This document shows, piece by piece, positions 7,854 through 52,607 of a stretch of 64,000 nt of DNA (positions are counted from its first letter, which is position 1; each line of letters begins with the position of its first letter). The notes below the pieces were generated by a model. That model was given only the letters and a program-made list of their open reading frames with translations, ran no database searches and was not told where the DNA came from. This stretch comes from an uncultured Gammaproteobacteria bacterium (GTDB lineage Bacteria; Patescibacteriota; Patescibacteriia; Magasanikbacterales; GWA2-37-8). The stretch is from contig CAZHYG010000002.1 of the NCBI GenBank assembly GCA_964536615.1, positions 45,000 to 108,999 of the forward strand. Direction: 5' to 3'. Both the position numbers and the translations under genes were made by a program.

Positions 7854-7943
7854 GGAGAGATGGCTGAGCGGTCGATAGCAACGGTTTACTAAACCGTAGT
7901 CCACGCAAGTGGACCCTGGGTTCGAATCCCAGTCTCTCCGCCA
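7854..7943 (+). tRNA. Type II tRNA (long variable arm), anticodon loop UUACUAA, apparent anticodon ACU (Ser-like, atypical A34)
   Basis: Acceptor GGAGAGA/TCTCTCC + G + encoded CCA; anticodon stem ACGGT/ACCGT at 7881-7897; long variable arm TCCACGCAAGTGGAC; T-arm GGGTTCGAATCCC. Confidence 0.7.
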
Positions 7944-7952
7944 AACACACCT

Positions 7953-8040
<88 letters not shown>

Positions 8041-24527: not shown

Positions 24528-25631
24528 TTATAAGGCTGATTCAATTTCAATTATCGCCATCACCTCACTTAATTTTATACTATTTTGCGCCGCAAGTACA
24601 TTGGCAATAGTTTTTCTCTCGGCTAGCGATGCGGCCACAGCATTCATATATGCGATATAGAGCGGACAACTATGAAACGCGGCCACACCATCCATATACC
24701 AAACATACGATTCTTCTTTCAAATTAAGGATTTTTTGCAAAACGCGTTTTGCTGCTTCTTCAGGCTTGCTGGAAAGCCGGCGAAAATCTTCTACGGTCAT
24801 TGATCTGATTTCTTCAATCGGCCCCATTTCCATCTCTGAAACTGTTATATCTTGCATAACTGGACGCGCAGACGGCTGAGTACTAATTTTAAAGACAGGT
24901 TCGTTAGCAAGGCTTTCGTTAATAATTTTTGACACAATTTTTTCTTTTTCATTAACGGGAGGACGAGCTGGAGTTGAGTTTTTTGTTCGCACACCTCCAG
25001 AAACTGGCAATACCATTGGCAATTCTGGCGGCTCCACCATTGGCAGCATATGCAAAGCAGATCCCTTGAGTACAGGCACACTCGTATTTTCAGATACAAC
25101 ATTTACAGAAACCTGTCGACAGATATCTAACATTTTTTGGACCTGTAAATCGGATAAACCCAATCCACCATTTTTTACCGGCTTACACAATATATCTTTT
25201 ACTTCATCGTCCGTTTTAATATCTTTAAGACGTGCCAAGACTAAACTTTTTAATCGCCCCTGCAGTTCTGAACCTACTGAAAACCCAAGCTTACGCACGA
25301 CTTCTTCAACCTGCTTTTCTCTTTTTTGGCTGGTGAGCCCACCAGCAGCTGATGCCGGTTTTTTTTCTTCAAGCAGCGAACGAGCATCATCACGCGTCAT
25401 AGCTACCGGCTTAGCCGGTTCTTTTTTTTCTTTTATCTCAACTGTTGTTTTGGAAACAATATTGCGCGCCGGCGAATTACCCGCAGCAGGTGCGTTTTGC
25501 GTCGATGCACGAGCTGGGGCAGGCGCAACCGCAACTGGTTTTTTGGCAGCTTGGGCTTTTTTAATATCGCTTAGCGGCACTTTAGCAAAAGTGCCGTCGG
25601 GGCGTTTTATAGTAATAAGCGGCTCGGTCAT
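24528..25631 (-). CDS. Hypothetical Ala/Pro/Lys-rich protein
   Basis: Low-complexity N-terminal half (APAPARASTQNAPAAG..); no TM helix; sits in the T4SS-like cluster. Confidence 0.35.
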   Translation of the reverse strand: MTEPLITIKRPDGTFAKVPLSDIKKAQAAKKPVAVAPAPARASTQNAPAAGNSPARNIVSKTTVEIKEKKEPAKPVAMTRDDARSLLEEKKPASAAGGLTSQKREKQVEEVVRKLGFSVGSELQGRLKSLVLARLKDIKTDDEVKDILCKPVKNGGLGLSDLQVQKMLDICRQVSVNVVSENTSVPVLKGSALHMLPMVEPPELPMVLPVSGGVRTKNSTPARPPVNEKEKIVSKIINESLANEPVFKISTQPSARPVMQDITVSEMEMGPIEEIRSMTVEDFRRLSSKPEEAAKRVLQKILNLKEESYVWYMDGVAAFHSCPLYIAYMNAVAASLAERKTIANVLAAQNSIKLSEVMAIIEIESAL

Positions 25632-25634
25632 ATG

Positions 25635-26558
25635 TTATATATTCCATTTAAATTGAGCGTCCTGTTCGTCAAAATAGAGTAGGTTTGCAATTTCTGGATT
25701 ATTATATTGTCCTGACAATTCTTGTAGTTTGTTTAAAACAGCTTCTATATCCTGAAATTCTCCAGCCTCGTTCTTTGGAAATTCAGATTCTATCTGGGAT
25801 TTGATTTCTGAAAGCACAGGAACTTGCATACGCACATTTTCCACATCTAACTCTGCTTCTTCATCATTAGTCACGAATAAGGATGCCGGCTCGTCGTAAA
25901 CTTGCGGGTTTAAAAAAACCTCTAGAACCTCTTGCAATTTTTCCACCGTATCTATATCTTCAAAAAAATTAACCAATTCTAGCAATCTATCCACTCCATC
26001 CGCTTTATTGCCTACCCCAAAATATTGTTCTGCCTCTAGTGGAAACAGTATTTGATTTAACTTACTGATAAATTCAGCCATTCGCATGGAATTATCTGTA
26101 CGTTTAAGATCTGCGTATTCCAAAACCAAATCTTTTAACTGCACGTTTTTACCTTGGTACTCCCCTAAAAATTCTTGGGAATTCAAAAAATTATTTCGAA
26201 CTTTAAAATACAGAGATGCTAGACGAGCTTTATCAGCCTTATTAGCGCTAAAAAACCAAAGCATTTCTTTAAAAATATCTATATCTAAAATGATAGCCAT
26301 TGGCGCCTGGCGCGCCATGATTTGTGCAAATACGTCCGCATCAGTAATGGTATCAATAACTTTCCAACTAAGGAGCACATATACCCGAAAATATGTCCAT
26401 CGCCAAACTTTATCTTTTTCATACATGTCCTTGGCAAAAAAACTATCCAGATCTTTCCATGTTTCATAGATACTATCAAAATTGGTATTATTATCAAAAA
26501 TACCTTGTTCAATTTGAACAAACTCTTCAAGCGTTTTTTTCTCAATTACAAGCTTCAT
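25635..26558 (-). CDS. Hypothetical acidic protein
   Basis: 307 aa, Glu/Asp-rich, no recognised domain. Confidence 0.35.
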   Translation of the reverse strand: MKLVIEKKTLEEFVQIEQGIFDNNTNFDSIYETWKDLDSFFAKDMYEKDKVWRWTYFRVYVLLSWKVIDTITDADVFAQIMARQAPMAIILDIDIFKEMLWFFSANKADKARLASLYFKVRNNFLNSQEFLGEYQGKNVQLKDLVLEYADLKRTDNSMRMAEFISKLNQILFPLEAEQYFGVGNKADGVDRLLELVNFFEDIDTVEKLQEVLEVFLNPQVYDEPASLFVTNDEEAELDVENVRMQVPVLSEIKSQIESEFPKNEAGEFQDIEAVLNKLQELSGQYNNPEIANLLYFDEQDAQFKWNI

Positions 26559-26568
26559 ACTGCCTAAT

Positions 26569-29500
26569 TTATTTTTTACGCTTATTCAATTCTTTTAGGG
26601 CTTCTTCAACTTCTTTTATATTATTACCATTTTTCATTCTACCTGTTTCTAGAGCAAACTTAAGCAGGGCCTCTACCCCTCTTTTATCCGGTACTTGTTT
26701 TTCTAAACGACCAAGTAAATCTTGCAAATCCGGAACGCTGCTGTTGTCAAAAATCGCACCAATATCACCCTTAGTGAACTCTTCTACATTTCCTAAATTG
26801 TTCCCAGTTAAACCGACTGCCAATTTTACAAATATATCTTTTGAATCCTCAGATTTGACTACCAACTTTCCATCAACTCCTCGATCCATACTACCTGCAA
26901 AACCAATTACATTTGTAAGTTTAGATCCAGATAAACCATTTTTTCTTCTACCCGCAACATACTCTCTGTCGCCCTTATTTTCTGCATCCACCAAAACTGT
27001 CTTCAGTGTTGCACTATCTATCTTATACAACCCAGCTCTACCCAACGAACCCTGACCAGCAGCTTTTTCATTTTTTAATCTTTTTTGTTCTAACATGGCA
27101 TTCGCCTTATCTCCATATATTTCATTCAATCTTTCTAAAGCTTTTTCTAAACTTGCATGACTGCTTGCATCAACTTTTTCATTTATGAGCTCTGCTAAAT
27201 CTTGAGCTTGTAAATTTCGAATAGCTTGAGGAGTTAGCTCCATTGACTGAGCATTTGACATTCCTACAGCTTCCAAAATTTTGCCTTTAATACCGTCTGC
27301 TACTGCCGCATGAGTACCTAAATTACTTATCTGCATTTCAGACAAACTTCTTTCTAAAATTCTTAAAACTGTTTCTGCGGCTTTTTTAGATTTTTCATCT
27401 TTTGCGCCTGCTATTATTTTTTTCTGGGCTTCGATTCTGGCGAGCTGAGCAGTAGTTTTGGCATCACTCTGAACATAATCGCCGGCCGCATTATGTCTCT
27501 TTATCCTCTCTTCAACTTGATTGTTTATGGTATTTTGCTCGTTATTCGCCTCACTGCTTCTATTTTCATCTCTCAAGACTTTATCGCGTGCTCGAGCGAT
27601 TTGTAAATCTTGCAACTCCTTTACATCAAAATTAAGCTGTTCAGCCATAGCCTTGCTTTTAGCAGGCTCAGTCACTTCTAAACCTTGTTTTAGCAGCTCT
27701 TTTATGGATTCCAATTCTTCAATCTGCTTTTTAGCAGCCAACTCGTCTTCAATTCGTTTTGTTTCTGCTCGCACTTCCGCAGATTTACCTTGTAATTCTT
27801 TCCCTTCATTTCCATGGAGATATTTTTCTAATTTTTCTACTTCTTGTTTTTTATGCTCCTCTCCAACATATTCTTTTTTTACTTTTGCTTCTGCTTTTGA
27901 TTTCATTGATTTATTGAACCGATCAAACCCTTGTCTGGCCTTAAATATATCCATATCATCTAAGCCAAGTTCCCTAAGCTCTTTGTCAACTTCTTCTTCA
28001 GACTTGCCACGCTCTTCACCACGTTCTAAGGTGTGCATTATTTTTTCACGCAATAATTCCATGTTCGCTTCTTTTCCTGCCTTGATATCTGCACCTGTAT
28101 GTTCCAAAAAATGCAACCATTCTTTGGCTTTCTGTTTTTTCATACCAATAGGCAAACTACTTGTACTAGCCAAATGGTCTAACTGCTCATGTTTTGCTTC
28201 AGCGGTAGCTTCCAGATCTTCAGAATAAGCTTTATGGAAAGCACCATATCCAATACCCCATTCCAACCTTGCTCTGGCAAATGTTCTTTTAGCCCAATCT
28301 CCCAAACCTTTCTGATCCACAGTGTCATACTTAATATTACCATGCTCATCTTTTATAATATTACCCTGCTCATCTCTCAAGGCAACTTTTTTCACATATT
28401 TACCCTTTTCATTAACAGCGAAAGTTTTTGAAATTTCCCCAGCCTTAACCGTGCTTTTTGCAAGCCGATCATAATACCAACCTGCTGCCCTACTCTTAAT
28501 ATTATGGCCTCGTCGCTGCCAAGCTTCCCCACCAATCAACGGCATTTTCATTACCGCAAATTTCCCGGCCGCCTTTGCCCCCTCGCCAACTTTACCACCA
28601 GCCCATTTTGCAGCCTGGAAGCCAGATGCGTACATGGCGGCTTTTTTGCCCAACTCACTGGCACTGCCCATCATATGTGCTCCGGCAACGCCAAGCTCTT
28701 CAGCCATTTTTGCCCCAGCCATTAAAATTGCAATGGCGATAATAAAATTTCCCATGTTTTCCCAACTCATTACTTCTGTAATACCTGTTTGTTCTTCGGC
28801 GGGTGCAGCTGATTCTTGCAACAACTGCCCTTGTTTAAGCGAATTATGCTTCACAATATCATCGTGAATATTTCCAGAACCAACTGTAACAAAAGAAAGC
28901 CAGAGAAAAAACGCGATTACCGGACCGGAAACAACGTTACTATTAAATTTTCCCCACCATTCACCGGCAAAATGTTCGGTTTGATGTAATACATTTAAAA
29001 CAAACGCAAATGGAGAAACCACGATAAGCACCCACAACATGGCCATGCGCGCCACAATCATAAACAAAAACGCCAGCATGGTGATAAGCATTGTTACCGA
29101 AAACATGATGGCCGCTACAGAAGCTAGAAAAATTGAAGCAGTGTCTCCGGTAAAATTGTCTCCATTGCCAAGTTTAAATATTTTATCTACCTGAAACATG
29201 TTGACCAAGTTGCCGCTGGCGGTGGCGGCGATACCGTTGAGAAATGTAACCATAACAATCTGCGCCACATCTATGATAAGACCGCAAATTAAACGGCTAA
29301 AATTAACGAGCACAGCTGCTGTAACCAGCTTAACCAGCATATGTTTCCATTCGTAGTGATCCAGACCAAGAATGGTACCGAATGCTATCATTAAAAGCAC
29401 AACCACAAAAAACATATTGGTGAGATCGCGAATCATAACCCAGCCAACCGTAACTGCCGGAGAATCTATGAACCCATTGTAACCAGCGACTTCAATGATA

Positions 29501-29757
29501 AATTTGAGAACAAAAAACGTAAGCTTGATACAAAAACCTGCCAACAAAAATAGCAGACCAGCAAATGCCTTGCCGATAGTTTCGCCAACACCACTTAACC
29601 AACCAGCTTGCGCAAACGGAGCAAAAACAAACCAACTAGTGATGATTGCGCTGGTAATTATAATAAAACTAACTAAGCCTAATTTTTTATGAGAACGAAA
29701 AAAAGACCAGAGCTGTCTGAAAATTAAACGCGCCTGTAGTGCAAATTGAGCAAACAT
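26569..29757 (-). CDS. VirB6/TrbL-like polytopic membrane protein with ~700 aa charged coiled-coil C-terminal extension
   Basis: N-terminal ~350 aa with multiple TM helices; then a long K/E/A-rich heptad-like region (KELQDLQIARARDKVLRDE..). Confidence 0.55.
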   Translation of the reverse strand: MFAQFALQARLIFRQLWSFFRSHKKLGLVSFIIITSAIITSWFVFAPFAQAGWLSGVGETIGKAFAGLLFLLAGFCIKLTFFVLKFIIEVAGYNGFIDSPAVTVGWVMIRDLTNMFFVVVLLMIAFGTILGLDHYEWKHMLVKLVTAAVLVNFSRLICGLIIDVAQIVMVTFLNGIAATASGNLVNMFQVDKIFKLGNGDNFTGDTASIFLASVAAIMFSVTMLITMLAFLFMIVARMAMLWVLIVVSPFAFVLNVLHQTEHFAGEWWGKFNSNVVSGPVIAFFLWLSFVTVGSGNIHDDIVKHNSLKQGQLLQESAAPAEEQTGITEVMSWENMGNFIIAIAILMAGAKMAEELGVAGAHMMGSASELGKKAAMYASGFQAAKWAGGKVGEGAKAAGKFAVMKMPLIGGEAWQRRGHNIKSRAAGWYYDRLAKSTVKAGEISKTFAVNEKGKYVKKVALRDEQGNIIKDEHGNIKYDTVDQKGLGDWAKRTFARARLEWGIGYGAFHKAYSEDLEATAEAKHEQLDHLASTSSLPIGMKKQKAKEWLHFLEHTGADIKAGKEANMELLREKIMHTLERGEERGKSEEEVDKELRELGLDDMDIFKARQGFDRFNKSMKSKAEAKVKKEYVGEEHKKQEVEKLEKYLHGNEGKELQGKSAEVRAETKRIEDELAAKKQIEELESIKELLKQGLEVTEPAKSKAMAEQLNFDVKELQDLQIARARDKVLRDENRSSEANNEQNTINNQVEERIKRHNAAGDYVQSDAKTTAQLARIEAQKKIIAGAKDEKSKKAAETVLRILERSLSEMQISNLGTHAAVADGIKGKILEAVGMSNAQSMELTPQAIRNLQAQDLAELINEKVDASSHASLEKALERLNEIYGDKANAMLEQKRLKNEKAAGQGSLGRAGLYKIDSATLKTVLVDAENKGDREYVAGRRKNGLSGSKLTNVIGFAGSMDRGVDGKLVVKSEDSKDIFVKLAVGLTGNNLGNVEEFTKGDIGAIFDNSSVPDLQDLLGRLEKQVPDKRGVEALLKFALETGRMKNGNNIKEVEEALKELNKRKK

Positions 29758-29950
29758 TTTTTAGCGATTATGTTGTATGCATTATACCATATTTTTAACA
29801 CGTCAACAACGCAAAAACATTAGTAAAAAATATGTGGATAAAAATATTATCGCGGGCTTGCATATTGCATTTTGGCATGGCCTATGTATAATACATATAT
29901 ACCTTTTTAGCGGCATATACGCGTATGCACTGTTTATGATGTGCTATAGA

Positions 29951-29979
29951 TTGACAAAATTGTTAAAAAGGTGTATACT
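29951..29979 (+). promoter_or_regulatory. Near-consensus sigma70 promoter TTGACA-17-TATACT
   Basis: TTGACA at 29951-29956, 17-nt spacer, TATACT at 29974-29979, in native AT-rich DNA pointing toward the GC-rich island. Confidence 0.45.
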
Positions 29980-29985
29980 TGTTAG

Positions 29986-30002
29986 TTATCCATAATGGAT
30001 AA
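29986..30002. promoter_or_regulatory. Perfect 17-bp palindrome TTATCCAT-A-ATGGATAA (candidate operator) at the predicted TSS
   Basis: 8-bp perfect arms around a single central base, 7 nt downstream of the -10 element. Confidence 0.4.
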
Positions 30003-30165
30003 TCGTTCTTTACAAAGTGCTGAAACGAGCAAAACTGCTAGTTTTAGCCAAATAATGAGTTACTACTGAAGACGCCTCTGGGCGAATATTTGCTTCTCTT
30101 CTAGACAAAGAGAGGTAGTTATTCGCCTAGAGGATTCAACTTCCCCCTCTGGGTAGGAGACCGCC

Positions 30166-30696
30166 ATGAGCAAGTCGTCCGTCAACAAGACCGCCGCGCT
30201 CGTGCGCGGCATCGTCCTGAGCATCCTCGTGATGCTCACCACCCTCCTCGCCGCCTGCGGCGGCGAGGACGACCCCATCGGCGACGCCACCACGTCGCCT
30301 GACGGCCCCGTCCAGCTGGACGGCGGCATCGACGCCATGTCGCCCCCCGATGCGCCGCAGCTGGACGTGTGCCAGCAACAGGACCCCCCTCCCCAGGGGG
30401 CGTACGTGATGAACGGAAAGAGCCTGCGGTGTGGCGCAAACGCCATGCCTGGAGACCACAACTCGTGGATCTTCGCCGGCTCCTCGGAGTTCTCCTGCAA
30501 CCTCGATGTCCACCCGGACACCGAAACGGGCGCAATTTGCGTCGTTCTGTGTGATGGGCACTTCGGCGCAGACTACACCAACCTGGTGGTGGAACGAGCG
30601 GGACTCCAAGGCCCCTACCGCTTCTACTACACCCCGCCGGGAGACGTGATGGAGTACGTGTGCTACGATCCGAGTACGCTCCCGTCTCAGTCGTAA
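30166..30696 (+). CDS. Small lipoprotein encoded in strongly GC-rich, foreign-composition DNA
   Basis: Signal peptide + 'LLAAC' lipobox; third codon positions almost all G/C; GGAGA RBS 8 nt upstream. Surrounded by AT-rich native sequence. Confidence 0.6.
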   Translation: MSKSSVNKTAALVRGIVLSILVMLTTLLAACGGEDDPIGDATTSPDGPVQLDGGIDAMSPPDAPQLDVCQQQDPPPQGAYVMNGKSLRCGANAMPGDHNSWIFAGSSEFSCNLDVHPDTETGAICVVLCDGHFGADYTNLVVERAGLQGPYRFYYTPPGDVMEYVCYDPSTLPSQS

Positions 30697-30760
30697 CTTT
30701 TGGGGCAGCTATCCGCGCTGCCCCGATCCGCTTAGTAGAAAAATAATTTTCTATTGAGCA

Positions 30761-30800
30761 AAATAAAAAATCGTTGTGTAATACAACGATTTTTTATTTT
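30761..30800. terminator. Bidirectional rho-independent terminator (AATCGTTGT-gtaat-ACAACGATT flanked by A/T runs)
   Basis: Perfect 9-bp stem; T-run on + after the island gene and T-run on - after the giant gene (which ends at 30813). Confidence 0.6.
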
Positions 30801-30812
30801 TAAAATATTATT

Positions 30813-33800
30813 TTAATTTGGCGTTACAACAACCTGCCCCGCAAATGGGGTGTACGCACCAATATTATCTTCACACTCATACTGAGGTATTGCGCCAACA
30901 GATCTATCGTAACACCCAACCCCACCTGAAGTTCCAGCAGATCCACAACTTCCATTACACCAACCCCAGTTATCTTTCAACTGTACAGCTGGTTTGAAGA
31001 CACAACATCCGCCATATAATGATTGGGTTTGCGCATCCGGACAAGTATTAGTCCAGCCGGTACCGTCGCGCGTACATTGATACACATGATCAAAACGGAA
31101 ATAGGCAGAGTCGCAAGTTTGTCCGATAATCTGACCAAAGCTTGGCGCCTTGCTTTCGGCTACACAATTATCCAAATACAAACAATCACTGCCCGACGAA
31201 CAATTTTTTCCGGTATCCAAATCGTATACACCTGCCGCGCCGGAAGAAATCATACACGTACCGCTGCTGCCGCAAATACCATTTACCGTACCGCGTTGAT
31301 TGCGGAAATAACCATCTAACGAAACTATATTGCCATCATTCCAGTCTAACTTAATTTTTTTCAACGGCATCTGATTTTTATCGGCAAAACCATAAAACTT
31401 AGCATTTACTACACCCACATTGGAACTAAACACAACATTACCGCTCGTTTTATCATTAACACTTATACCAGCGCTTAAACCTTCCAAACATTTACCTCCC
31501 GGCTTACAGGTGCCGAGCGGACGCACTTGCGGCGCGCGGTCTGGTGAAGATAATGTTTCGGTAAGATCATACGGACGAACCGCAGATGCATCACCAGCCG
31601 GCAACACACTGCTTATTTGCGTATTATTTTTATAGAAGAAGCCAGCAGATGGTGTCGAGCTAAGAGTCCAGTTCCATACACTGCTAATTTTGGCAAAAAT
31701 TTGCGAGAGGCTTGATTGCGCATCATCAAAATTACGCCCTGAAGCTTGGCCGGTTTGATCGGCGCGCGCGGAAGGATTTGTTTGCAAACAATTTCTGTCG
31801 GTACAAGCGTATGGAGAACCGACCGTTGCTGCAGGCAAAGCCGGAGTTGCGGCCGCATAATGAGAAAAAATTGAAATCAACTGATCCGGAACAAGCAAAC
31901 CTTGCATTGAGACACTGCCAAATGGTGAACCTGCTAAATTATTTTTATAATTTAATCCGGATGGATCTACGGCAAAATTACTTCTCTTCCACAAACGATC
32001 TGTCCAACCGACCGAAGTATATGGCGCATCTTTGGCTGTTTGCGCCACACTGGCACATGTTTCACGAAGACCCGCATATACATTAAATGTAGCATTTTCA
32101 AAATCAGTGCTTTCACCAGTAAAACAAACCAAACTTACATGATCAAGTTTTCCGCTCGCATCAAACATAGCTCGTATCGCACAACCATCATCATTATCAT
32201 CAACATTTTCATGTAAACAATTAGTTTGATAGTTATCGGCTCTTTCCACATCAACACTTCCACAATCTGCGCGAAGTAAATCTCTAAACTGAACTGCTGT
32301 TGTATCATACGGATCCGCATATTGATAATGCGGCAATGAAACCACGTCGCCCTGGCCATCATCCCATCGCATATACCACGCGCTTTTATCACGGCCATCA
32401 GACCAAACTTCTTGTCCGATATTTAACCCCGTTGCCTCTCCTGCAAATAACAACGATGAGTCGTTAACAAGATCTAAATTTGAACCATTGCCTGTAAAAA
32501 CTTGAGTTTGATTTGTATACTTACTTACATATCCATTTCTGATAAAAAATTTATTTGTACCATTAGGGAACCAGTCCGAATTTCCAGTTGCAGAAATCAA
32601 CAAATAATCAATTTCATCTCTGTAAACGGGCGTGCTAGCATTAACGGTCAACACCCTAATAGTACGATCATTTATCTGGTCGCTTTTTACCTCTTTGGTG
32701 CCTAATAATTTATCATAAATGGCAACATCACTACCCAACACACTTGTTACTGTTTGATTGCCTTTAGCATTTAAACAGTAGTATTTACCGGAGGCCTCAG
32801 TTGCTTGAAAACCAGCTTCCACATGCTGATTATTTATATCTAAAGCACCTGTAATACTGTCTTTAGGGAACCAGGTAAGACAAGCAAAACTTCCTTGTTC
32901 AGCATTTATCGGACGCGACAGATCTGGTTCAACGCAATATCCTTGCCAGCCAATGAGTTTGGACTGCTTCTTTAATTTTTGGCAAGTGCCGCCAGAACAA
33001 TCGCTATCAGTTGAACATACCTGATCAGCGTTATCTCCACCCACACAAATACCCGGCACAACACTCTTAAATATTTGCCCACTGCCACCAGCAATGCCCT
33101 GGCTATTCGGGTTATTGAAATTCCAATATCTTGTGAACGAATCACCGTATGATGCTTTGGTGTAACTACACTCGCAAGCATATGCCTTATCTCTGTCGGT
33201 GGTAGAGGTTGGCGATTCAGCACAGACGTTAACCGAGTTAAACAAGACTGAATTTTCTATATTGCTTGTATTTGGGAACGGGGATGTCTCCTCTGGATAC
33301 GCTCGGCAAGATGGCGAGATTGATTGACGAGGAGCGTTACTGGAAGCGTCATCTAAATTTTGCACACAGACTGGATTGCCTGCTCCCATACACACACCAA
33401 TGTTACTTCGACCGCAGGCCAGACCAACTGCATTTGATTTGCAGGCAGTGTTGTTTGGATTTGTGGTTTTACAATTTGCACCGCCGCCACAACCCATAGT
33501 TTTTGCCAAACGCCAATCGGTGTTTGTAGCACTGCCAACATTAACTTCGGATAATTCTTCCAACGGGAATGTATTTAAAATACTAAAGCCGCTAAAATCT
33601 TCTCCGCGCCAATCGGTACTTCGGTTGCGATACGCTGTTTCGGTCAATACTTGACCGCTCAAATCATGGGAATTATCAACCCAATTTGCACAATTAATAA
33701 GGCCATTACCTGTGGAACCTGAAACCTTATTACACCTTCCCACATCGTCACAAACCTCTTTATATGTGCCAGATTGGGGATCGAACACGCGATGCGAAGA

Positions 33801-36800
33801 TCGACACTGCAACCATTCGCCGCATTCTCTATCTCTACTTACTTTCAAAACTACATTAGCATCATTGACGGACGATCCTGAACCAGCAACCGGAGCAACC
33901 AATTCGCCATTTTGCGCTGTGCTGGCCGCATACGAAGCAGCTGTATTCCATAATTTATTTGGAGAATCTGTTTTATCAAACAAAACACAACCATTTTTTT
34001 CACTTACCTGGCCATTACATTGAGTCTGTTGCGATTTTAACTTATCGTCATTTATTAAATAATAAGTTTTATTATTTTCATTTCTGTCAATAAATTCGGT
34101 ACATCCGCTTTGCGCTGCGGCACATTCACCAACAAAATTACTGTATCTACCACTGTCACCATACGACCATAAGCCGTAATTATTGCCGGATTGCAGATAG
34201 CTTGGATAGCAAGCTTGCTCCCCCTTTCCCTGACATGTCGCGCCGCCTGTACAATCACTATCCGAAGAACATAATGCGGAACCTGACGATCCGCCGCCTT
34301 GGCAAACACCCACATCTTTCCAAAACCAACCATTATATTTAACACCATCTTTTACAACATTTTCTTTATAGGCACAAACTTTTTGACCGATAACTGCCGG
34401 ATCCTTAAAGAACAAAGATCCATTTGCCGAAGAATATGCGTTACATCCAACAGCCTCACTCTGACACAATGTTGTATCAAATGAAGCCGGATCTTTCTTA
34501 ATAAATACATCAGTATACACAGGTCCGGTCGGAGTTTCGGTAACTTTTCCGGCTTTGGAACAACCGACATCTACTGCGTTACAGGTTGTATTTCTGCTTG
34601 CAACCAAATATATTGGTGATGAAGTTGGTGTATCTGCTTGCACATACACAGTTGATGTGGAAACTACTCCGCCACCAGCAGTAATTTGAGCAATCGTAAT
34701 GCCGGTGGTATTAACATAACAACCGCTTTGGCCTAGCGCAACCTGGCATGTATATGAGGTTCCACCCATAATCTTTGTAACTGTTTGACCTTCCGGACCT
34801 GACAACCAAACATTATATGCGCGCGGTCCAGGATCATCAGGTGTATTGGCTGTATCAAAGAGAGCAGTGCAACCGATAGCATTTTCACGGCACAGCGAGG
34901 TGAAACCTGTTAAATATATTGAATTATTATCAGGTGTCTTGTATTGAGAGCAGCCAAGTGCTTCTCCTGGCAAGTTATCATTAACATTACTGTCGCATAC
35001 CGGATCAACTTTGAGCGTATTTTTTACCACATATATGTAATCGGAAATTTCTTTGAGGCTGACATTGTCTAAGAATAAACGGCCATTGACTATAAATTTA
35101 AGCTGAGTACTGCTAGCAGAGCCATTTAACTCTACTGGACCAAGATGATAGCTTTGCCAACTATCACCAACACTTACCGTACCCAGAGTTTGCACACTGT
35201 CATTTTCAAGAGTAACGGTTACTGTTTCTCCGGCAGATCCTTTTGCCCAGAAAACCAAATCATAACTTTGACCAGGCGTGAGAGATACGGTTTTAGATAC
35301 GAACTGTGAGCCCGTATATGACAATGAATGTTCGCCGGTGTGGGTTGATTCTAAAGATTGAGTTACTCCGTTAGCGCTCCAACCTGATAGAGCATCGCTT
35401 AATACTGACTGCTCAAAATTATTACTAAAAATATTGCGAACGTTATTGCCAGTATTGCCTTTGTACGCCCGACATGAACTTACTGTGGCTGCACAGGTCT
35501 TACTGGTTCCAGCCACATCTTGAGCACCGCCTGGCAAACCATAATAGAAACATTGCCCATCTCTATATTCACCGTTTTGGAAACATACTTGGCAAGTTTG
35601 CGTACCTGCATCAAATTTACCTTTATCCAAATCACATTTATCTTGACTTGAAGCTACTGTTTCCATTTCCGTGTCATTTAACCGATACGGAGTACACATG
35701 GTAGAAACCGTAATGGTTTTTGACAGCAATTTATAATAAACCTGTCCAGCATCATCGTTAAACTGCCGGCAATCCGGACTGGCTAGACCTGACTTATATA
35801 AAGACTCATTACATACTGCATCATAATCTTCTAACAAACGACTGCTGCGATAAAAATACTTTGGACTGCCATCAGAGTCTTGCTCCAACACAAATGATTT
35901 CAGTTGAAAACCGCCAACTGCAGAACCTTCGTAGGTATAAAATTTCTTTTGTTTGTTTGCGTCAGGCAAAATACATGGACGCAAATATGAGAAGTGCTCT
36001 ACTTTTTCCACGCCATTATTTGTATCACCTAAGTTGGTAAAGCTGGCACAACCTTCGTCAGCAGCGCTACATGCTGCGCCAGATGATGGGATAATATAGG
36101 CAACAGATTGGCCGCTAGAATAGCTGCTTGGCATTTCTTTGTATGCGCTATACCCGACACATCGAGCATCACATTGATCATTCCAAACAATTGCATCGTT
36201 TACAATTTGCGCAGGAGTAAATTTACCCGGAATACGATCTCCGCTATAGCTAGTCGGCTGATACCAGTTACAACTTACTTCATCGGCAATACATGCCGGG
36301 GCATAACTGCTGCATTCTGGTTTTGTTCCTAATTTATTCAAATCACTTGCGCTACGAGGCCAATCTACCGCAAGTGTTGATGTGTCTGTGTCATAACACT
36401 GAGCGTAATATGGCGCCTTCCGCAAATACAAATTATCTGCGGTACTGGCTGTTTTAAACGCACTACAACCATCTGAGTTGGCCGAACAATTTGTAGAAAC
36501 TTTATTATTAAAATAAATAACCGAATTTTCACCGCTGTTTATATCTGCCGGAGAGTAACCAGTCCATTGCCCCGAAGCATTCTTCTTTAAACTATACGCA
36601 GAGCAACCTACGGTATCTTGCGTACAAAAACCAGTATCCAACGTGCGATAGAGATAGCTGACGGTGACCCCATTGGCGTTTTGAAATGATTGGCAAGTGC
36701 GATACTGCGCATCGCATTTATTTGCATCAACTTTCCAAACATTTTTTTCTCTGGTGCAGTAACCTTGAGTGGCACAATTACCGTCTTTATCATAAGCGAC

Positions 36801-38426
36801 ACACGTGGTCATATCTACACATTCTTGGGTGCGATTAGCTGTGCCAGATAAAGCAGCTGGTGTAGAACCAAACGCCATAAAATTACAGGTGGCTGGAGGT
36901 GCTTTGATAACCCAGTTTGGATCAATGAGGTGACAGAATGGTTTATTTACAGGATCATTATCTACACCCACCACATTGCCATTTACGTCTTTAATAAAAT
37001 TACAGTCATTAAAACCATCAACCACTTGCTTGAGAGTCCAAGGCTTATCCGGATTGCTGTTTAACGTAGCGACCTCAAACCCAAGCGGCAAAATCCGCGC
37101 CTTACGCAATTTGGCAATGTTAGCATAACAATATGCGCGCTGATGACAGCTCGTGTCAGTGTTATCAGCGATGCGATCCGGGGACACAAGCTTCCATTCT
37201 CCGTGAAGCCAATTTTTTTCAATTGCTTCTCTTATAGTGACGGCCTTACCGACATTTGCTTCCTGTGCTGCTTGAGCTAACCCATTGTCTGCCACACAAT
37301 TTTCTGCGCTTGGGTTTGCTGGGCAGTTAGTGAAATTCAATAATAAATTATACTGATCAACACGCAGGTTAGGAGGGGTGAGCAGATCACTAAACAAAGC
37401 CTGCGCGGATTGTCTTCCGCCTCTGCCTAATTGACCTTCCAAACTACTAAGCGTATCTTGCAAAGTTTTACACCCTTCTCCACCCACACCGCCCACACAA
37501 ATTCCAAGAGGTAGCATGCCTTTTTCTTGCCAATTTTTTAACATCTGAGAAGCGAGCGTGTTGAAAAATAAAGAACCTGCGCTGGCAATACTGCCAATCG
37601 CTCCAGTGCCTAATGTGGCAAAAAATCCCGCTTCAGCAGATTTCTTTTGCTCGCTCGGATTTTGCGACTGCGCTTCTTCCGCAATATTTTTTGCCGGTGT
37701 TACAATCTCTCCCGAAATAAGAGTTGTTTTTGGATTGTACCCATCCCCCTCTTCGCGCTGCAGCTTAGCAGCTTCTGTTTGTTGAGCCACATAGTTATCA
37801 ATTTTTTCTGTGGCGCTAAGCAAAATACCCACATCTGTCTGCTCTAAAGAAAAAGCAACATTAAATTTACGGGCAATATCATCTGTGGAACCAAATTGAC
37901 TCTGCCAATTGCTGGCGCTTAACACTTCATTTTGAAAAGTTGACCAAGTACAAGTAGGTTTATTAACTCCTTGGGTTTGTGTATTAAGATTCGTATTAAG
38001 ATCCAAATATTTACGCGTCAAACCAATACGCATGGCCAAATCTATTTTTGGATCTGGGATTTTACATAAATTGAGGCCGTATGGAGAACCTAAAGCCTCA
38101 ATAGCCACACCGGCTGCATTATCCCCCACATCTTTCATGTAACTGCCGAAGTCTTTATATTGCGCGAACGGAGACTGGCCTTTATTGCCTGAGGCCAACC
38201 AAACAGCAGTATCATATGCAACTCGACGTAAAAAATATGAAAAAGACTGAATCGCAATATTTACCGCAGCGGTTTTAATAAAGCGTTCCGCCAAACTTGG
38301 TAAATCAGAAATAACTTCTACCGGGATTGCTTTGGCTGGACGAACATATAAAAACGAACCACCTACGCTTACAAATACAAAAATAAATAAAAGTATTTTA
38401 GTTGCGATTCTTTGAAACTTTGACAT
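30813..38426 (-). CDS. Giant (2537 aa) secreted Cys-rich cell-surface protein, putative adhesin with a beta-sandwich carbohydrate-binding-like region
   Basis: N-terminal signal/TM anchor; uninterrupted 7.6-kb ORF; many Cys pairs, Gly/Ser/Thr/Asn-rich; segment 'WQSYHLGPVELNGSASSTQLKFIVNGRLFLDNVSL' resembles CBM/LamG beta-sandwich modules. Confidence 0.6.
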   Translation of the reverse strand: MSKFQRIATKILLFIFVFVSVGGSFLYVRPAKAIPVEVISDLPSLAERFIKTAAVNIAIQSFSYFLRRVAYDTAVWLASGNKGQSPFAQYKDFGSYMKDVGDNAAGVAIEALGSPYGLNLCKIPDPKIDLAMRIGLTRKYLDLNTNLNTQTQGVNKPTCTWSTFQNEVLSASNWQSQFGSTDDIARKFNVAFSLEQTDVGILLSATEKIDNYVAQQTEAAKLQREEGDGYNPKTTLISGEIVTPAKNIAEEAQSQNPSEQKKSAEAGFFATLGTGAIGSIASAGSLFFNTLASQMLKNWQEKGMLPLGICVGGVGGEGCKTLQDTLSSLEGQLGRGGRQSAQALFSDLLTPPNLRVDQYNLLLNFTNCPANPSAENCVADNGLAQAAQEANVGKAVTIREAIEKNWLHGEWKLVSPDRIADNTDTSCHQRAYCYANIAKLRKARILPLGFEVATLNSNPDKPWTLKQVVDGFNDCNFIKDVNGNVVGVDNDPVNKPFCHLIDPNWVIKAPPATCNFMAFGSTPAALSGTANRTQECVDMTTCVAYDKDGNCATQGYCTREKNVWKVDANKCDAQYRTCQSFQNANGVTVSYLYRTLDTGFCTQDTVGCSAYSLKKNASGQWTGYSPADINSGENSVIYFNNKVSTNCSANSDGCSAFKTASTADNLYLRKAPYYAQCYDTDTSTLAVDWPRSASDLNKLGTKPECSSYAPACIADEVSCNWYQPTSYSGDRIPGKFTPAQIVNDAIVWNDQCDARCVGYSAYKEMPSSYSSGQSVAYIIPSSGAACSAADEGCASFTNLGDTNNGVEKVEHFSYLRPCILPDANKQKKFYTYEGSAVGGFQLKSFVLEQDSDGSPKYFYRSSRLLEDYDAVCNESLYKSGLASPDCRQFNDDAGQVYYKLLSKTITVSTMCTPYRLNDTEMETVASSQDKCDLDKGKFDAGTQTCQVCFQNGEYRDGQCFYYGLPGGAQDVAGTSKTCAATVSSCRAYKGNTGNNVRNIFSNNFEQSVLSDALSGWSANGVTQSLESTHTGEHSLSYTGSQFVSKTVSLTPGQSYDLVFWAKGSAGETVTVTLENDSVQTLGTVSVGDSWQSYHLGPVELNGSASSTQLKFIVNGRLFLDNVSLKEISDYIYVVKNTLKVDPVCDSNVNDNLPGEALGCSQYKTPDNNSIYLTGFTSLCRENAIGCTALFDTANTPDDPGPRAYNVWLSGPEGQTVTKIMGGTSYTCQVALGQSGCYVNTTGITIAQITAGGGVVSTSTVYVQADTPTSSPIYLVASRNTTCNAVDVGCSKAGKVTETPTGPVYTDVFIKKDPASFDTTLCQSEAVGCNAYSSANGSLFFKDPAVIGQKVCAYKENVVKDGVKYNGWFWKDVGVCQGGGSSGSALCSSDSDCTGGATCQGKGEQACYPSYLQSGNNYGLWSYGDSGRYSNFVGECAAAQSGCTEFIDRNENNKTYYLINDDKLKSQQTQCNGQVSEKNGCVLFDKTDSPNKLWNTAASYAASTAQNGELVAPVAGSGSSVNDANVVLKVSRDRECGEWLQCRSSHRVFDPQSGTYKEVCDDVGRCNKVSGSTGNGLINCANWVDNSHDLSGQVLTETAYRNRSTDWRGEDFSGFSILNTFPLEELSEVNVGSATNTDWRLAKTMGCGGGANCKTTNPNNTACKSNAVGLACGRSNIGVCMGAGNPVCVQNLDDASSNAPRQSISPSCRAYPEETSPFPNTSNIENSVLFNSVNVCAESPTSTTDRDKAYACECSYTKASYGDSFTRYWNFNNPNSQGIAGGSGQIFKSVVPGICVGGDNADQVCSTDSDCSGGTCQKLKKQSKLIGWQGYCVEPDLSRPINAEQGSFACLTWFPKDSITGALDINNQHVEAGFQATEASGKYYCLNAKGNQTVTSVLGSDVAIYDKLLGTKEVKSDQINDRTIRVLTVNASTPVYRDEIDYLLISATGNSDWFPNGTNKFFIRNGYVSKYTNQTQVFTGNGSNLDLVNDSSLLFAGEATGLNIGQEVWSDGRDKSAWYMRWDDGQGDVVSLPHYQYADPYDTTAVQFRDLLRADCGSVDVERADNYQTNCLHENVDDNDDGCAIRAMFDASGKLDHVSLVCFTGESTDFENATFNVYAGLRETCASVAQTAKDAPYTSVGWTDRLWKRSNFAVDPSGLNYKNNLAGSPFGSVSMQGLLVPDQLISIFSHYAAATPALPAATVGSPYACTDRNCLQTNPSARADQTGQASGRNFDDAQSSLSQIFAKISSVWNWTLSSTPSAGFFYKNNTQISSVLPAGDASAVRPYDLTETLSSPDRAPQVRPLGTCKPGGKCLEGLSAGISVNDKTSGNVVFSSNVGVVNAKFYGFADKNQMPLKKIKLDWNDGNIVSLDGYFRNQRGTVNGICGSSGTCMISSGAAGVYDLDTGKNCSSGSDCLYLDNCVAESKAPSFGQIIGQTCDSAYFRFDHVYQCTRDGTGWTNTCPDAQTQSLYGGCCVFKPAVQLKDNWGWCNGSCGSAGTSGGVGCYDRSVGAIPQYECEDNIGAYTPFAGQVVVTPN

Positions 38427-38437
38427 AGCGGCAAATT

Positions 38438-39043
38438 CTATGGATTATTGATATTGGTTGATGTTGCTGTAGCGCTCAACGCTTCTTGCACCATTTTTAT
38501 CAGATCAGCATCGGATGTTTTATCAAGTAAAGTTTTATCAAAACCGGCCTCAAGAAGCATCTTGCGAATCTGAGTTGGATTGCTGAGCATGGTTTCTAAT
38601 TCAGCCGCAGAAGGAGGCGGCCCAAGCGTGGAAGTGGCGGCTGCTACTGACGTTACTGGCGGGACACCATCACCGCTTAGAATAGAATCTGTACATGTTT
38701 GACCTTCAGGACAAGCGGGGTTAGTGCCTTTTTCAACTTCTTCTTTATCACTAATACCATCCGAATCGGTATCTTTTAAATATGGACTGGTAACATACAC
38801 ATACAACTCATCAAAATCATTAAGCCCGTCTTTATCGGTATCACGATACATCAAGCCTTCGTTGGTATCAATTTCTTCTTTGGTCGCATACGGAACATCT
38901 GAATTGAGCGCAAAAGGCGCATATAAAGTATTTCTAATTTTGAGCACTCCCAAACCAACCGCAAAAACAGCAAAAAGAGAAAGCATAAAAACACCCATCT
39001 TTTGCTGCTTGGTTAATCCTTGCTCTTCGTGCCCTTCTGGCAT
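38438..39043 (-). CDS. Membrane-anchored protein with thrombospondin type-3-like Ca-binding repeats
   Basis: N-terminal TM helix; 'DTDKDGLNDFDE' and 'DTDSDGISDKEE' Dx[DN]xDGxxDxxE repeats; immediately upstream of and co-oriented with the giant gene. Confidence 0.55.
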   Translation of the reverse strand: MPEGHEEQGLTKQQKMGVFMLSLFAVFAVGLGVLKIRNTLYAPFALNSDVPYATKEEIDTNEGLMYRDTDKDGLNDFDELYVYVTSPYLKDTDSDGISDKEEVEKGTNPACPEGQTCTDSILSGDGVPPVTSVAAATSTLGPPPSAAELETMLSNPTQIRKMLLEAGFDKTLLDKTSDADLIKMVQEALSATATSTNINNP

Positions 39044-39141
39044 AAAAACTGTCGGTTAAGTATATATAGTATAACACAAGGCAAGCCATCTGAGTAATGG
39101 GGATAACTACACGGTGAAGCACAACTAAAATTTAGGTGTGT

Positions 39142-39978
39142 TTAGGAGAGAATTGCTTGGGCCAGATCACGCCATTGCTGCACTGACAGCTCTTGCGGGC
39201 GCGCTTTTGGATTGATACCTAACATTTCAAACACCTTTTCAGTCTTTTGACGCGAACAAATACCTCCAATATTTTTGATAAGCATTTTTCTACGACTCAC
39301 AAACCCGGCTTTTACAATTTTAAAAAATTGATCATCTTCCTGCGCTGACGTAGACTGCGTATGATTAATATTAATCTTTATAACCGCTGAATCCACGGCT
39401 GGCACAGGCCAAAAATATGACCGAGGTACCTGCATGACAATTTCCGGATTACCATAATACTGAACTGAAAGCGCCAATACCGACATATCACCGGCCTGCG
39501 CACAAATTCTTTCAGCAACTTCTTTTTGCACCATAAGAACCAGCACGCGCGGCTTGCAGGCTGTTTCTAAAAACTTTCTCATCACCAAAGAAGTTATCTG
39601 GTATGGAAGATTAGCAACTACCGAATACGGCTCTGTTTGCAACACTGCTTGCTTCTCAAGTTCATACAGCACATTCCCCCACACAATTTCTATATTTTTA
39701 TATTGTTTCTGCAAACCATTCCAGTATGGTGTTAATTTTTTTTCAATTTCAAACGCAATAACCTGCTTGGCTTTTTCCGCCAAAGCAAGTGTTAACACTC
39801 CAAAACCAGGACCGACCTCTACAACCATATCATCTTTTGCAACCTCGCCAGCTTCCACCATCGCGGCAATCACCTCGGGTTGTAATAAAAAATTCTGGCC
39901 GTATTTTTTGGACGGAACCAAGCCATATTTTTGAGACAAGCTTTTTAAATATGATTCGTTATACAGCTGGAGTTGCAT
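39142..39978 (-). CDS. rsmA: 16S rRNA (adenine1518/1519-N6)-dimethyltransferase RsmA/KsgA
   Basis: 'KKYGQNFLL', 'VVEVGPGFGVLT' motifs; 278 aa. Confidence 0.85.
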   Translation of the reverse strand: MQLQLYNESYLKSLSQKYGLVPSKKYGQNFLLQPEVIAAMVEAGEVAKDDMVVEVGPGFGVLTLALAEKAKQVIAFEIEKKLTPYWNGLQKQYKNIEIVWGNVLYELEKQAVLQTEPYSVVANLPYQITSLVMRKFLETACKPRVLVLMVQKEVAERICAQAGDMSVLALSVQYYGNPEIVMQVPRSYFWPVPAVDSAVIKININHTQSTSAQEDDQFFKIVKAGFVSRRKMLIKNIGGICSRQKTEKVFEMLGINPKARPQELSVQQWRDLAQAILS

Positions 39979-41191
39979 ATAATTGATTGTTAGAGAAAAC
40001 TTTTTTCATACGAAATACAGTGAGCGCCAATACTGCTGATAACAACACCATTACATACGGCAAAACCGTGCTTTTGCCCACCATCCAAGCCGCCACTGGC
40101 AAAAAAGGAACTTCCATAATATGGCGTACAAAATTAGCTAAAGACAGCGTAGTGGCTCTGTTGTACGAACGAAACTGCTGGTTGAACAGATGCGAAAAAA
40201 ACGGATCGCGCAAAGCACTGCTCGCCATCATCAGAATATAGCTAGCAAATATTATATATTTATTTGGATAAAAAAACCATGCAACCAGAAACAAAGCAAC
40301 GGCACCGCCGGTAACCCCATTCAAAATATTAATTTTAGATTCGGCTGTATTTTTAAACAAAATTTTATCACCCAAACGATTGCCTGCAAAAACGACTAAA
40401 TGATGCATACTCCACAAAAAACCAAATATAATTACAGGTATGCGCAACGAATCAACAAATAAAACAGCTGCATACCGCCAACAAGCCGCAGCGGTAACCA
40501 CAACCATCATCTTATTAAAGATGGTCCATAATAAATTTTTATCATGAACCAATATGCGATACGCGTCTTTAATAATACCCGCCTCTTGCTGCTCCACATC
40601 CATATAATGATTTGGTTCAACCAAAGTAAAAGCATAAAATATAGCTATAATTGATGCTACCACATCCACTAAAATAATAAGCGAAAACTGCCAAGAAGCA
40701 AGATCTTTGGCAATTATGGCGCCTAAAAAGGCAGAAAAAATTTTAAACACCCTTTCCGAAGAAAAATAATAAGCTAGTTTTTTAAACGACTGATTATGAT
40801 CACCCAGCTCTTTATTTGTGTCAAATACAAAGGCTTCATCCGTACCGCTCATGAAAGATTCTGCCAAAGCAAAAAATATCGCTCCGACTGCAAACATGGC
40901 AAACGAGTCGGCTATCAAGTACACGGCCCAGTGCAACAGCGCAAAACATGTTGCCATAATTATCGTTCGCTTACGGCCAAATTTATCTGCCAAATAACTG
41001 GATGGCACCTCACTGGCAATAACCGTAACGGAATAGATAATGCCCAGATAAAAAATATCGGCAATACGCAAGCTGCGATATACAAAAAACAAAGAAATGA
41101 TCACGTTGATCATTTTTAAATTAAGAAGCGAGTTGATGAAAAATATTTTAAAAAAGTTTTTTTCTAATTTCTTTTTTCTATCGTCAGACAT
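39959..41191 (-). CDS. MFS transporter
   Basis: About 12 TM helices and an MFS-like loop motif between TM2 and TM3 ('DKFGRKRT'). Confidence 0.6.
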   Translation of the reverse strand: MSDDRKKKLEKNFFKIFFINSLLNLKMINVIISLFFVYRSLRIADIFYLGIIYSVTVIASEVPSSYLADKFGRKRTIIMATCFALLHWAVYLIADSFAMFAVGAIFFALAESFMSGTDEAFVFDTNKELGDHNQSFKKLAYYFSSERVFKIFSAFLGAIIAKDLASWQFSLIILVDVVASIIAIFYAFTLVEPNHYMDVEQQEAGIIKDAYRILVHDKNLLWTIFNKMMVVVTAAACWRYAAVLFVDSLRIPVIIFGFLWSMHHLVVFAGNRLGDKILFKNTAESKINILNGVTGGAVALFLVAWFFYPNKYIIFASYILMMASSALRDPFFSHLFNQQFRSYNRATTLSLANFVRHIMEVPFLPVAAWMVGKSTVLPYVMVLLSAVLALTVFRMKKVFSNNQLYATPAV

Positions 41192-44645: not shown

Positions 44646-46301
<1,656 letters not shown>

Positions 46302-52498: not shown

Positions 52499-52607
52499 CT
52501 CCAGATTGGTGGGCCCTTGGGGTTCTTTTCCCCTCGGGCACTCTGTCGATTTTCCCTCTAAAAAGAGAGGGGGCTTCATTACACACTTCTTTATATGTGT
52601 AACAAAG

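Follow-up and report, generated by a model that had tools for sequence, protein, structure and literature searches.

Why should a perfect 17-bp palindrome stand directly behind a near-consensus promoter and ahead of a GC-rich lipoprotein gene in a genome of AT-rich composition? The question is raised by a 64,000-nucleotide stretch of DNA (positions 45,000 to 108,999 of contig CAZHYG010000002.1, assembly GCA_964536615.1; hereafter, the window) from an uncultured bacterium of the Magasanikbacterales (Patescibacteriota), in which the palindrome, TTATCCAT-A-ATGGATAA (29986..30002, plus strand), follows a sigma-70-type promoter. The original prediction took this arrangement for the operator of a dimeric repressor, aimed into a foreign island. 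Our analysis suggests that the feature is most likely a promoter-proximal 5′ stem-loop, an element of a known kind, lying within an uncatalogued structured leader. Specifically, we lean, with our confidence evenly balanced, towards the palindrome being the DNA image of the 5′-terminal RNA stem-loop (proposed helix P1: 7 bp, loop UAA) of a structured leader without an Rfam match. The RNA-hairpin and operator readings are not mutually exclusive.

The promoter reads as first described: the −35 hexamer TTGACA (29951..29956, plus strand) and the −10 hexamer TATACT (29974..29979, plus strand) are separated by a 17-nt spacer, and six bases (29980-29985) intervene between the −10 hexamer and the 17-mer TTATCCATAATGGATAA, the stem beginning at the seventh base past the −10. 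TTGACA-17-TATACT scores 11/12 as a sigma-70 promoter and is the top match within positions 25000-40000. Across the loci compared (58 fetched loci, given L numbers below), the −35 hexamer is invariant in all relatives and distant lineages. The −10 hexamer varies among relatives (TATAAT, TACACT and TAGGAT) with the spacing unchanged, and all lineages examined retain TTGACA-17-TAnnnT ahead of their lipoprotein gene, whether orthologous or analogous. This conservation supports a functional sigma-70-type promoter, whose predicted start, at 29985/29986, is derived from its geometry. A separate inverted repeat, TAATACATATATACCTTTTTA (29889-29909) and TAAAAAGGTGTATACTTGTTA (29964-29984), flanks the −35 hexamer; its CCTTTTT/AAAAAGG cores are retained in L009 with some two-sided changes, and AAAAAGG is retained at the same spacer position in L051.

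Symmetry by itself says little about the palindrome. The claim that perfect symmetry was unlikely by chance fails when taken alone: counting perfect palindromes whose arms reach 8 bp or more and whose spacers are 0-3 nt long, the window has 18, where first-order Markov simulations predict 6.7 ± 2.6. Such an excess would suit a palindrome that is an inherited, functionless accident in AT-rich DNA behind a real promoter, as would the weakness of the predicted hairpin (−5.3 kcal/mol) and the variation or loss of the palindrome in the next relatives out (L009 and L051). We nonetheless consider an accident quite unlikely, because the palindrome opens right at the +1 predicted for the strongest promoter and is conserved in relatives, which together mark it as non-random. 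The 17-mer is unchanged in L001-L008, L011-L017 and L058, even in strains whose flanking genes share only 88-93% DNA identity, and 14/17 positions are kept in L009, L010 and L042. Onset at the predicted +1 also recurs in several independent lineages and at a second GC-rich gene in the window, and hairpins at +1 are in excess at such promoters, as detailed below.

Behind the same promoter design (TTGACA-17-TAnnnT followed by 6 nt), hairpins at the predicted +1 differ in sequence and have loops that span 3-12 nt across lineages: TTATCCA-TAA-TGGATAA in the window, GGAGGAA-N12-TTCCTCC in L019, TCCC-TCTC-GGGA in L020, GGAG-N6-CTCC in L032 and TGTC-N7-GGCA in L051. The second compositional outlier of the window, a minus-strand gene at 51593-52579 (GC content at third codon positions, GC3, 0.76; 299 amino acids, or 328 from an upstream ATG), is preceded by TTGACG-17-TATGCT (52637-52609), 6 nt and a +1 hairpin, TTACACA-N10-TGTGTAA (52602-52579), with the counterparts TTACGTA-N5-TACGTAA in L057 and TTGAG-N9-CTCGA in L053. 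The stem starts at the seventh base past the −10 in the window, L019, L020, L032, L051, L053 and L057 as well as at this second gene. More generally, hairpins of 5 bp or more that start at +1 to +3 stand behind 7 of the 16 strong promoters that precede GC3-rich open reading frames (ORFs) and behind 3 of the 47 that precede ordinary ORFs (Fisher p = 0.0016).

The changes between related hairpins point in the same direction. Compared with the hairpin at the window's second GC-rich gene, that of L057 shows two compensatory pair changes (A-U to G-C and C-G to U-A) and a loop reduced from 10 to 5 nt, a halving that a spaced dimer operator would not tolerate. In L051, where P1 reads CUGUC..GGCAA, one A-U pair has become G-C and one U-A pair has become U·G; the perfect palindrome is absent there, and the wobble favours an RNA structure because it is paired in RNA and mismatched in a DNA palindrome. 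In L009, P1 shows an A-U to U-A exchange at one pair together with one C-A mismatch.

If transcription starts at about 29985/29986, as the near-consensus sigma-70 promoter would direct, the first 17 nt of the transcript would therefore form a 7-bp hairpin without a free 5′ tail. This hairpin would open a leader in which P1, a YGYUCUUUA motif, P2, a conserved linker, P3 and a Shine-Dalgarno (SD) sequence follow one another, heading the monocistronic mRNA of a rapidly evolving, GC-rich lipoprotein tied to the Patescibacterial type IV secretion system (T4SS) locus. The leader (29986-30165, about 180-186 nt) folds at −70.9 kcal/mol (z = −5.5 versus shuffles), with P1, P2 and P3 all present in the centroid fold and P1 also in the minimum-free-energy structure. 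Immediately past the 5′ hairpin lies a conserved single-stranded motif, CGTTCTTTAC (RNA CGUUCUUUAC; consensus YGYTCTTTA; 30004..30013, plus strand), which is seen in the window, L009, L019, L020, L029, L032, L041 and L051. In 8/8 of these lineages the motif is followed by a hairpin, formed by unrelated sequences (z −2.1 to −3.3). In the window this hairpin is P2, GCUGAAAC-G-AGCA-AAAC-UGCU-A-GUUUUAGC (30019..30048, plus strand), predicted by folding and accompanied in relatives by G·U to A-U and G-C to C-G changes. The conserved linker CAAATAATGAGTTACTACTGA (30049..30069, plus strand) ends the AT-rich part of the leader that can be aligned with L009 (the blastn break between the two falls at 30069/30070), and the compositional switch starts with P3, a long GC-rich hairpin with 26-nt arms (30074..30133, plus strand). 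In L011, P3 carries two U-A to U·G changes, which preserve pairing solely in the plus-strand RNA because of the wobble they create, and in L009 another long hairpin takes the place of P3. The SD sequence AGGAG (30155..30159, plus strand) lies 6 nt ahead of the ATG, and GGAG is retained before the start codon in other lineages.

Conservation of the leader extends well beyond the closest strains. Its opening 84 nt, more strongly conserved than the rest, are kept in L009, L010 and L042, and the conservation stops sharply at 30069; in L009 this holds despite a lipoprotein identity of just 60%, and the conservation is non-coding, since indels break every reading frame. L051, with a VirB6 59% identical, retains the promoter, the motif, P2 and an AGCCAAA linker. 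Further out, L019, L020, L029, L032 and L041 display the promoter, a 5′ hairpin, YGYTCTTTA, a hairpin, often GCGTGTGAG, a long GC-rich hairpin and the SD sequence, the stems being unrelated. The distant leaders defied MAFFT, and because that alignment was unusable the structural alignment was made by eye and the comparison rests on folding lineage by lineage. A covariance model (R1) built on the window, L017, L009 and L051 and run over 549 kb recovered nothing beyond its own subfamily and no additional copies, and a metagenome scan for the conserved linker returned one true relative (L042, of the L009 type) and seven chance matches. Rfam 15 contains no family that matches the leader of the window (E up to 10) or those of its relatives (gathering threshold), only tRNAs passing; the best leader matches are noise from miRNA-type hairpins, which reach 27 bits where the gathering score is 90. 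A pairing of YGYUCUUUA with the SD sequence, as an anti-SD hinted at by RNAalifold, was considered and rejected: its duplex energies are mid-ranked among leader windows in the 8 lineages.

These observations bear on another part of the original prediction, that the region encodes a regulated leader or a small RNA. A conserved, structured 5′ leader is there, and a free-standing small RNA is unlikely because no terminator separates the leader from the ORF: a plus-strand scan of 29986-30165 found none, P1 being AT-rich and followed by UCGUUCUUUAC, and P3 being followed by AUUCAACUUCCCCC. A small RNA spanning 29986-30069, or alternatively a leader peptide encoded by a 24-codon upstream ORF (uORF; 29995-30069) that would control the downstream gene, could account for the strong conservation of the first 84 nt and its abrupt end at 30069, all the more as the palindrome contains an ATG from which a 24-codon frame runs to precisely that point. 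We judge both highly improbable. No hairpin with a U tract resembling a terminator occurs in 30002-30165, and Rfam offers no match for such an RNA. As for the peptide, L009 has no ATG, indels of 1 nt and 2 nt shift the frame, L051 has in-frame stops, and no SD sequence lies ahead; the uORF, conserved in neither L009 nor L051, was rejected.

The operator of the original prediction calls for closer weighing, as this reading survives through the likeness of the palindrome arms to a conserved TTATCCNCA box. A dimeric protein would here occlude the transcription start, and it might be the same factor that acts at the TTATCCNCA boxes (DnaA or another regulator), in which case lipoprotein expression would be coupled to the virB6 and giant-gene operons that flank it. 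We regard such an operator as a possible, if doubtful, explanation. Its appeal lies first in the perfect two-fold symmetry (8-1-8) over the predicted +1, and second in the agreement of the arms, TTATCCATA and TTATCCATT, with TTATCCACA at 8/9 and 7/9 positions. The A/T swap of L009 (positions 7 and 11) retains the symmetry, and a site resembling the CIRCE element of chaperone genes, located at groES, provides an example in the same genome of an operator just past a −10. On the other side, the palindrome is gone in L051 and asymmetrically degraded in L009, even as the upstream box is preserved exactly. In distant lineages the corresponding position is occupied by hairpins of unrelated sequence whose loops measure 4-12 nt. 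A search for other copies, which might have defined a regulon, found no second palindrome in the 64-kb window (≤3 mismatches) or in the 58 fetched loci outside the site. TTATCCAT[AT] is without upstream enrichment once coding matches are removed. Neither a helix-turn-helix repressor nor any other regulator domain was detected among the window ORFs scanned, several small ORFs having no match of any kind. For these reasons a dimeric-repressor operator is not favoured.

The box on which the operator reading draws is itself a striking element of the locus. The sole exact copy of TTATCCACA, identical to the classical DnaA-box 9-mer, in the 64 kb (29833..29841, minus strand) lies in the same intergenic region, 145 bp from the palindrome, and is invariant in relatives. 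It stands upstream of the divergent promoter of the 1062-amino-acid VirB6-like gene, TTGTTG-17-(TGG)TATAAT (29781..29809, minus strand). In Magasanikbacteria loci, the TTATCCNCA box occurs 17 times over the 17 kb that lie within 600 nt upstream of virB6-like genes, compared with 24 times in 510 kb elsewhere (21-fold). It keeps a fixed distance to the −10, lying 28-30 nt upstream of the extended −10 TGGTATAAT, which is conserved in 10 lineages; the distance is 46 nt in the window and 38 nt in L009. In L020, L032 and L041 a box also precedes the lipoprotein promoter, and L041 carries a single TTATCCATA over the lipoprotein start site. All of this would suit a common factor acting at the box and at the palindrome. 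Position 8 of the box, however, is a C fixed in all variants enriched upstream of virB6-like genes and a T in both arms. Scored against the DnaA-box 9-mer TTATCCACA (relaxed form TTWTNCACA), the arms reach 8/9 and 7/9 with the C of position 8 missing in both. The intergenic region resembles DnaA boxes that serve as transcriptional control sites in holding an exact TTATCCACA, with TTATCC[ACG]CA enriched upstream of virB6-like genes and palindrome arms that are only one and two positions away from the 9-mer; in addition, Patescibacterial T4SS loci are reported to be near dnaA/oriC in many classes (PMC12102498). It departs from them in the C to T change at position 8 of both arms, and the window has no dnaA gene or box cluster, nor does its cumulative GC skew turn. 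A variant box, TTATCCCCA (39098-39106, minus strand), is found ahead of the operon that comprises the TSP3-repeat and giant genes.

Among well-characterized operators, lacO1, the LexA/SOS box and the Fur box invite comparison, since the palindrome likewise is an inverted repeat, of 17 bp, starting at +1, where a bound dimer could block RNA polymerase. Unlike in those systems, no cognate regulator or regulon copies were found, and half-sites and spacing vary among orthologous promoters. The palindrome fits none of the three consensus sequences, and all that it shares with the Fur box is GATAA/TTATC, arranged in everted order. The CIRCE-like site noted above, TTATCACTC-N9-GAGTGATAA (46716-46690, minus strand), is a variant of the HrcA consensus TTAGCACTC-N9-GAGTGCTAA and follows the groES-groEL promoter TTGACA-16-TAAACT, promoter and site together spanning 46754-46690. 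The palindrome shares with it a position just past the −10 and the outer TTATC...GATAA. However, CIRCE has 9-bp arms, a 9-nt spacer and a GCACTC core, whereas the palindrome combines arms of 8 bp with a spacer of 1 nt and the core CCAT, and precedes a lipoprotein gene rather than a chaperone gene. The palindrome was accordingly rejected as a CIRCE/HrcA operator on the grounds of spacer (1 rather than 9), core and gene.

Stem-loops at the 5′ terminus are established stabilizers of mRNA. The effect was reportedly described by Emory, Bouvet and Belasco in 1992 and by Bouvet and Belasco in the same year, and later, it is said, by Bricker and Belasco in 1999 and by Hambraeus et al. in 2002, all four papers being cited among the references of PMC3997798. 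By analogy with ompA, papA and aprE, P1 would most likely shield the mRNA from decay that depends on the 5′ end, and the remainder of the leader probably sets translation or stability. We infer the transcript, and any effect on its stability or translation, from the sequence, its conservation, the predicted folds, their recurrence and a few compensatory changes. As in the 5′ untranslated regions of Escherichia coli ompA and papA and in the Bacillus subtilis aprE leader, the hairpin stands at the predicted 5′ end with no unpaired tail, a long leader and a strong SD sequence come after it, structure rather than sequence recurs across lineages, and a strong promoter drives a gene for an envelope or secreted protein. 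The window differs from these cases in that P1 is AT-rich and modest (−5 kcal/mol), its start is predicted and its host is an uncultivated bacterium from the candidate phyla radiation (CPR); P1 is also part of a larger conserved leader that includes the motif, P2 and P3. With the structured cis-regulatory leaders catalogued in Rfam, the leader has in common its length, its conserved single-stranded motifs between variable hairpins and its position ahead of one gene family. Unlike those leaders, it has no Rfam 15 match, and its comparison covers about eight lineages, all of one candidate phylum.

Several points weigh against the stem-loop. Formal covariation is thin: among 4 distinct sequences, 2 pairs changed on both sides, a result matched by 28/500 shuffles. 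In L009, P1 has little stability (C-A mismatch, −0.7 kcal/mol), and in L029, L041 and L018 it is either weak or missing. An inverted repeat is a hairpin and a symmetric protein site alike, and the double change of L009 fits both. Moreover, the innermost T-A pair is symmetric though unable to form within a 3-nt RNA loop, and the arms match a nearby box that is clearly under selection. The start site is itself only predicted, the distant leaders were aligned by eye after MAFFT failed, and the covariance model recovers its own subfamily only.

Is the lipoprotein gene then part of a foreign island? The compositional contrast described in the original prediction is real: GC content is 0.32-0.33 over the promoter and 0.6-0.78 from about 30100. 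The lipoprotein ORF (30166..30696, plus strand; 176 amino acids with a signal peptide, a lipobox LAAC, an acidic/proline linker and a Cys-containing C-terminal domain), whose ATG at 30166 lies 186 nt past the −10, has a GC content of 0.65 and a GC3 of 0.85, versus 0.23-0.45 in 47 other ORFs. Despite this outlying composition, a recently acquired island was rejected, the gene being present in relatives and no donor having been found. A word-indexed homologue search yielded 5 clusters, with homologues P0002, P0003 and P0005 in the same slot, and the same lipoprotein with the same flanks occurs in several metagenomes. When 1.84 billion representative proteins were searched exhaustively with a profile, 8 matches were returned, the convincing ones (E ≤ 1e-10) all being small lipoproteins and the lone one with a named source coming from Candidatus Magasanikbacteria. 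Neither the word-indexed nor the exhaustive profile search revealed a high-GC donor family, and no convincing flanking direct repeats or transposon ends surround the GC-rich segment. GC-rich lipoprotein genes are found at or near the locus in L017-L020, L029, L032 and L041. In L018, L019, L020, L029, L032 and L041, VirB6 is only 31-45% identical, yet GC-rich small lipoprotein ORFs (GC3 0.68-0.86) lie at or near the virB6-like gene. Given the joint recurrence of promoter, leader and GC-rich lipoprotein in distant Magasanikbacteria, the idea of an island that inserted behind an existing promoter, capturing it and ousting a native gene, is not supported.

Comparisons at the DNA level reveal a mosaic. 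Against L011, the closest genome, identity is 89% up to 30376, disappears across 30377-30779, which holds the C-terminal domain, and returns at 88%, L011 carrying an unrelated C-terminal domain in its lipoprotein. Against L009, identity is 71% up to 30069, disappears across 30070-30345, where P3 and the signal peptide lie, and returns at 73%; in L009 the linker, too, is different, along with P3 and the signal peptide, and the C-terminal domain is shared with the window. This mosaic identity, together with the recurrence of the unit, therefore points to an old, recombining resident gene of the locus. It also raises the question of why a few CPR genes stay GC-rich in genomes that are AT-rich, once the gene is viewed as a long-standing resident rather than a recent foreign insertion. 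Elsewhere in the locus, the C-terminal half of the VirB6-like gene (25849-27819) differs between L008 and the window. GC-rich small ORFs near the T4SS were also observed in L018, L019, L020, L026, L029, L032, L036 and L041, in genomes of 37-49% GC; most encode lipoproteins that combine an acidic/proline linker with the motif C-x-W-x-W-M...W-x-C.

The plus-strand unit is monocistronic, consisting of the promoter, the leader, the lipoprotein ORF, a GC-rich hairpin and a bidirectional intrinsic terminator, and sits between two minus-strand genes, the VirB6-like gene (26569-29757) and a giant gene (30813-38426). The terminator, AAAAAATCGTTGT-GTAAT-ACAACGATTTTTT (30765..30795, either strand; 18-nt arms, 100% complementary), ends both the lipoprotein unit and the convergent gene of 2537 amino acids. 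The 1062-amino-acid polytopic gene is assigned as VirB6-like on the basis of PF04610 (TrbL/VirB6) on its homologue P0023 and of its T4SS neighbours, as PrgI-like, TrsD-like and VirB4-like genes lie downstream. The locus, including the nearby ksgA, fits the Patescibacterial type IV secretion cluster, which is essential for epibiotic growth in the one system tested (PMC12102498). That study is silent on promoters, lipoproteins and GC content at the T4SS locus (PMC12102498). The lipoprotein itself belongs to no Pfam, NCBIfam, PHROG or PADLOC family, and its AlphaFold2 model is unusable (predicted local distance difference test score of 40).

The present results would add four cis-elements to the T4SS locus: a consensus promoter, a 5′ stem-loop, an uncatalogued leader and an enriched TTATCCNCA box. 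To our knowledge, almost nothing is known of gene regulation in CPR bacteria. What stands out most is the association of persistently GC-rich genes with a consensus promoter and a +1 hairpin in AT-rich CPR genomes, together with the enrichment of a DnaA-box-like element at T4SS genes. One might go further and propose that the promoter, the +1 hairpin, YGYUCUUUA and P2/P3 constitute an undescribed class of regulatory leader of persistently GC-rich Patescibacteria genes, perhaps with a regulator of the TTATCCNCA box (possibly DnaA), a proposal that we deem unlikely as it stands. Were it correct, the class would mark the T4SS-associated lipoprotein as well as, under a different leader, the 299-amino-acid protein found CPR-wide, and the palindrome would act at two levels, as an RNA element and as a DNA site, connecting replication or T4SS control with surface-protein expression.

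The second GC-rich gene has further features of its own. Its structured leader bears a conserved CAGAGTGCC...ACCAATYTGGAG, and its protein family, without a Pfam entry, comprises 113 clusters and is widespread in Patescibacteria; in four lineages the gene is GC-richer than its own genome. An exact look-up of the 299-amino-acid version of the protein found it not on record. The giant protein (30813-38426, minus strand; 2537 amino acids) is Cys-rich, secreted and conserved in relatives and has a weak CBM_4_9 match; in L050 the C-terminal end of the giant gene directly adjoins virB6, with no lipoprotein gene between them. The sole Rfam matches of the window are two adjacent tRNA genes with long variable arms (7854-7940 and 7953-8037). 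Finally, a leucyl-tRNA synthetase of 1156 amino acids (56837-60307, minus strand) has an unusual organization, with apparent insertions of a NUDIX domain (419-523) and a serine hydrolase domain (603-774).

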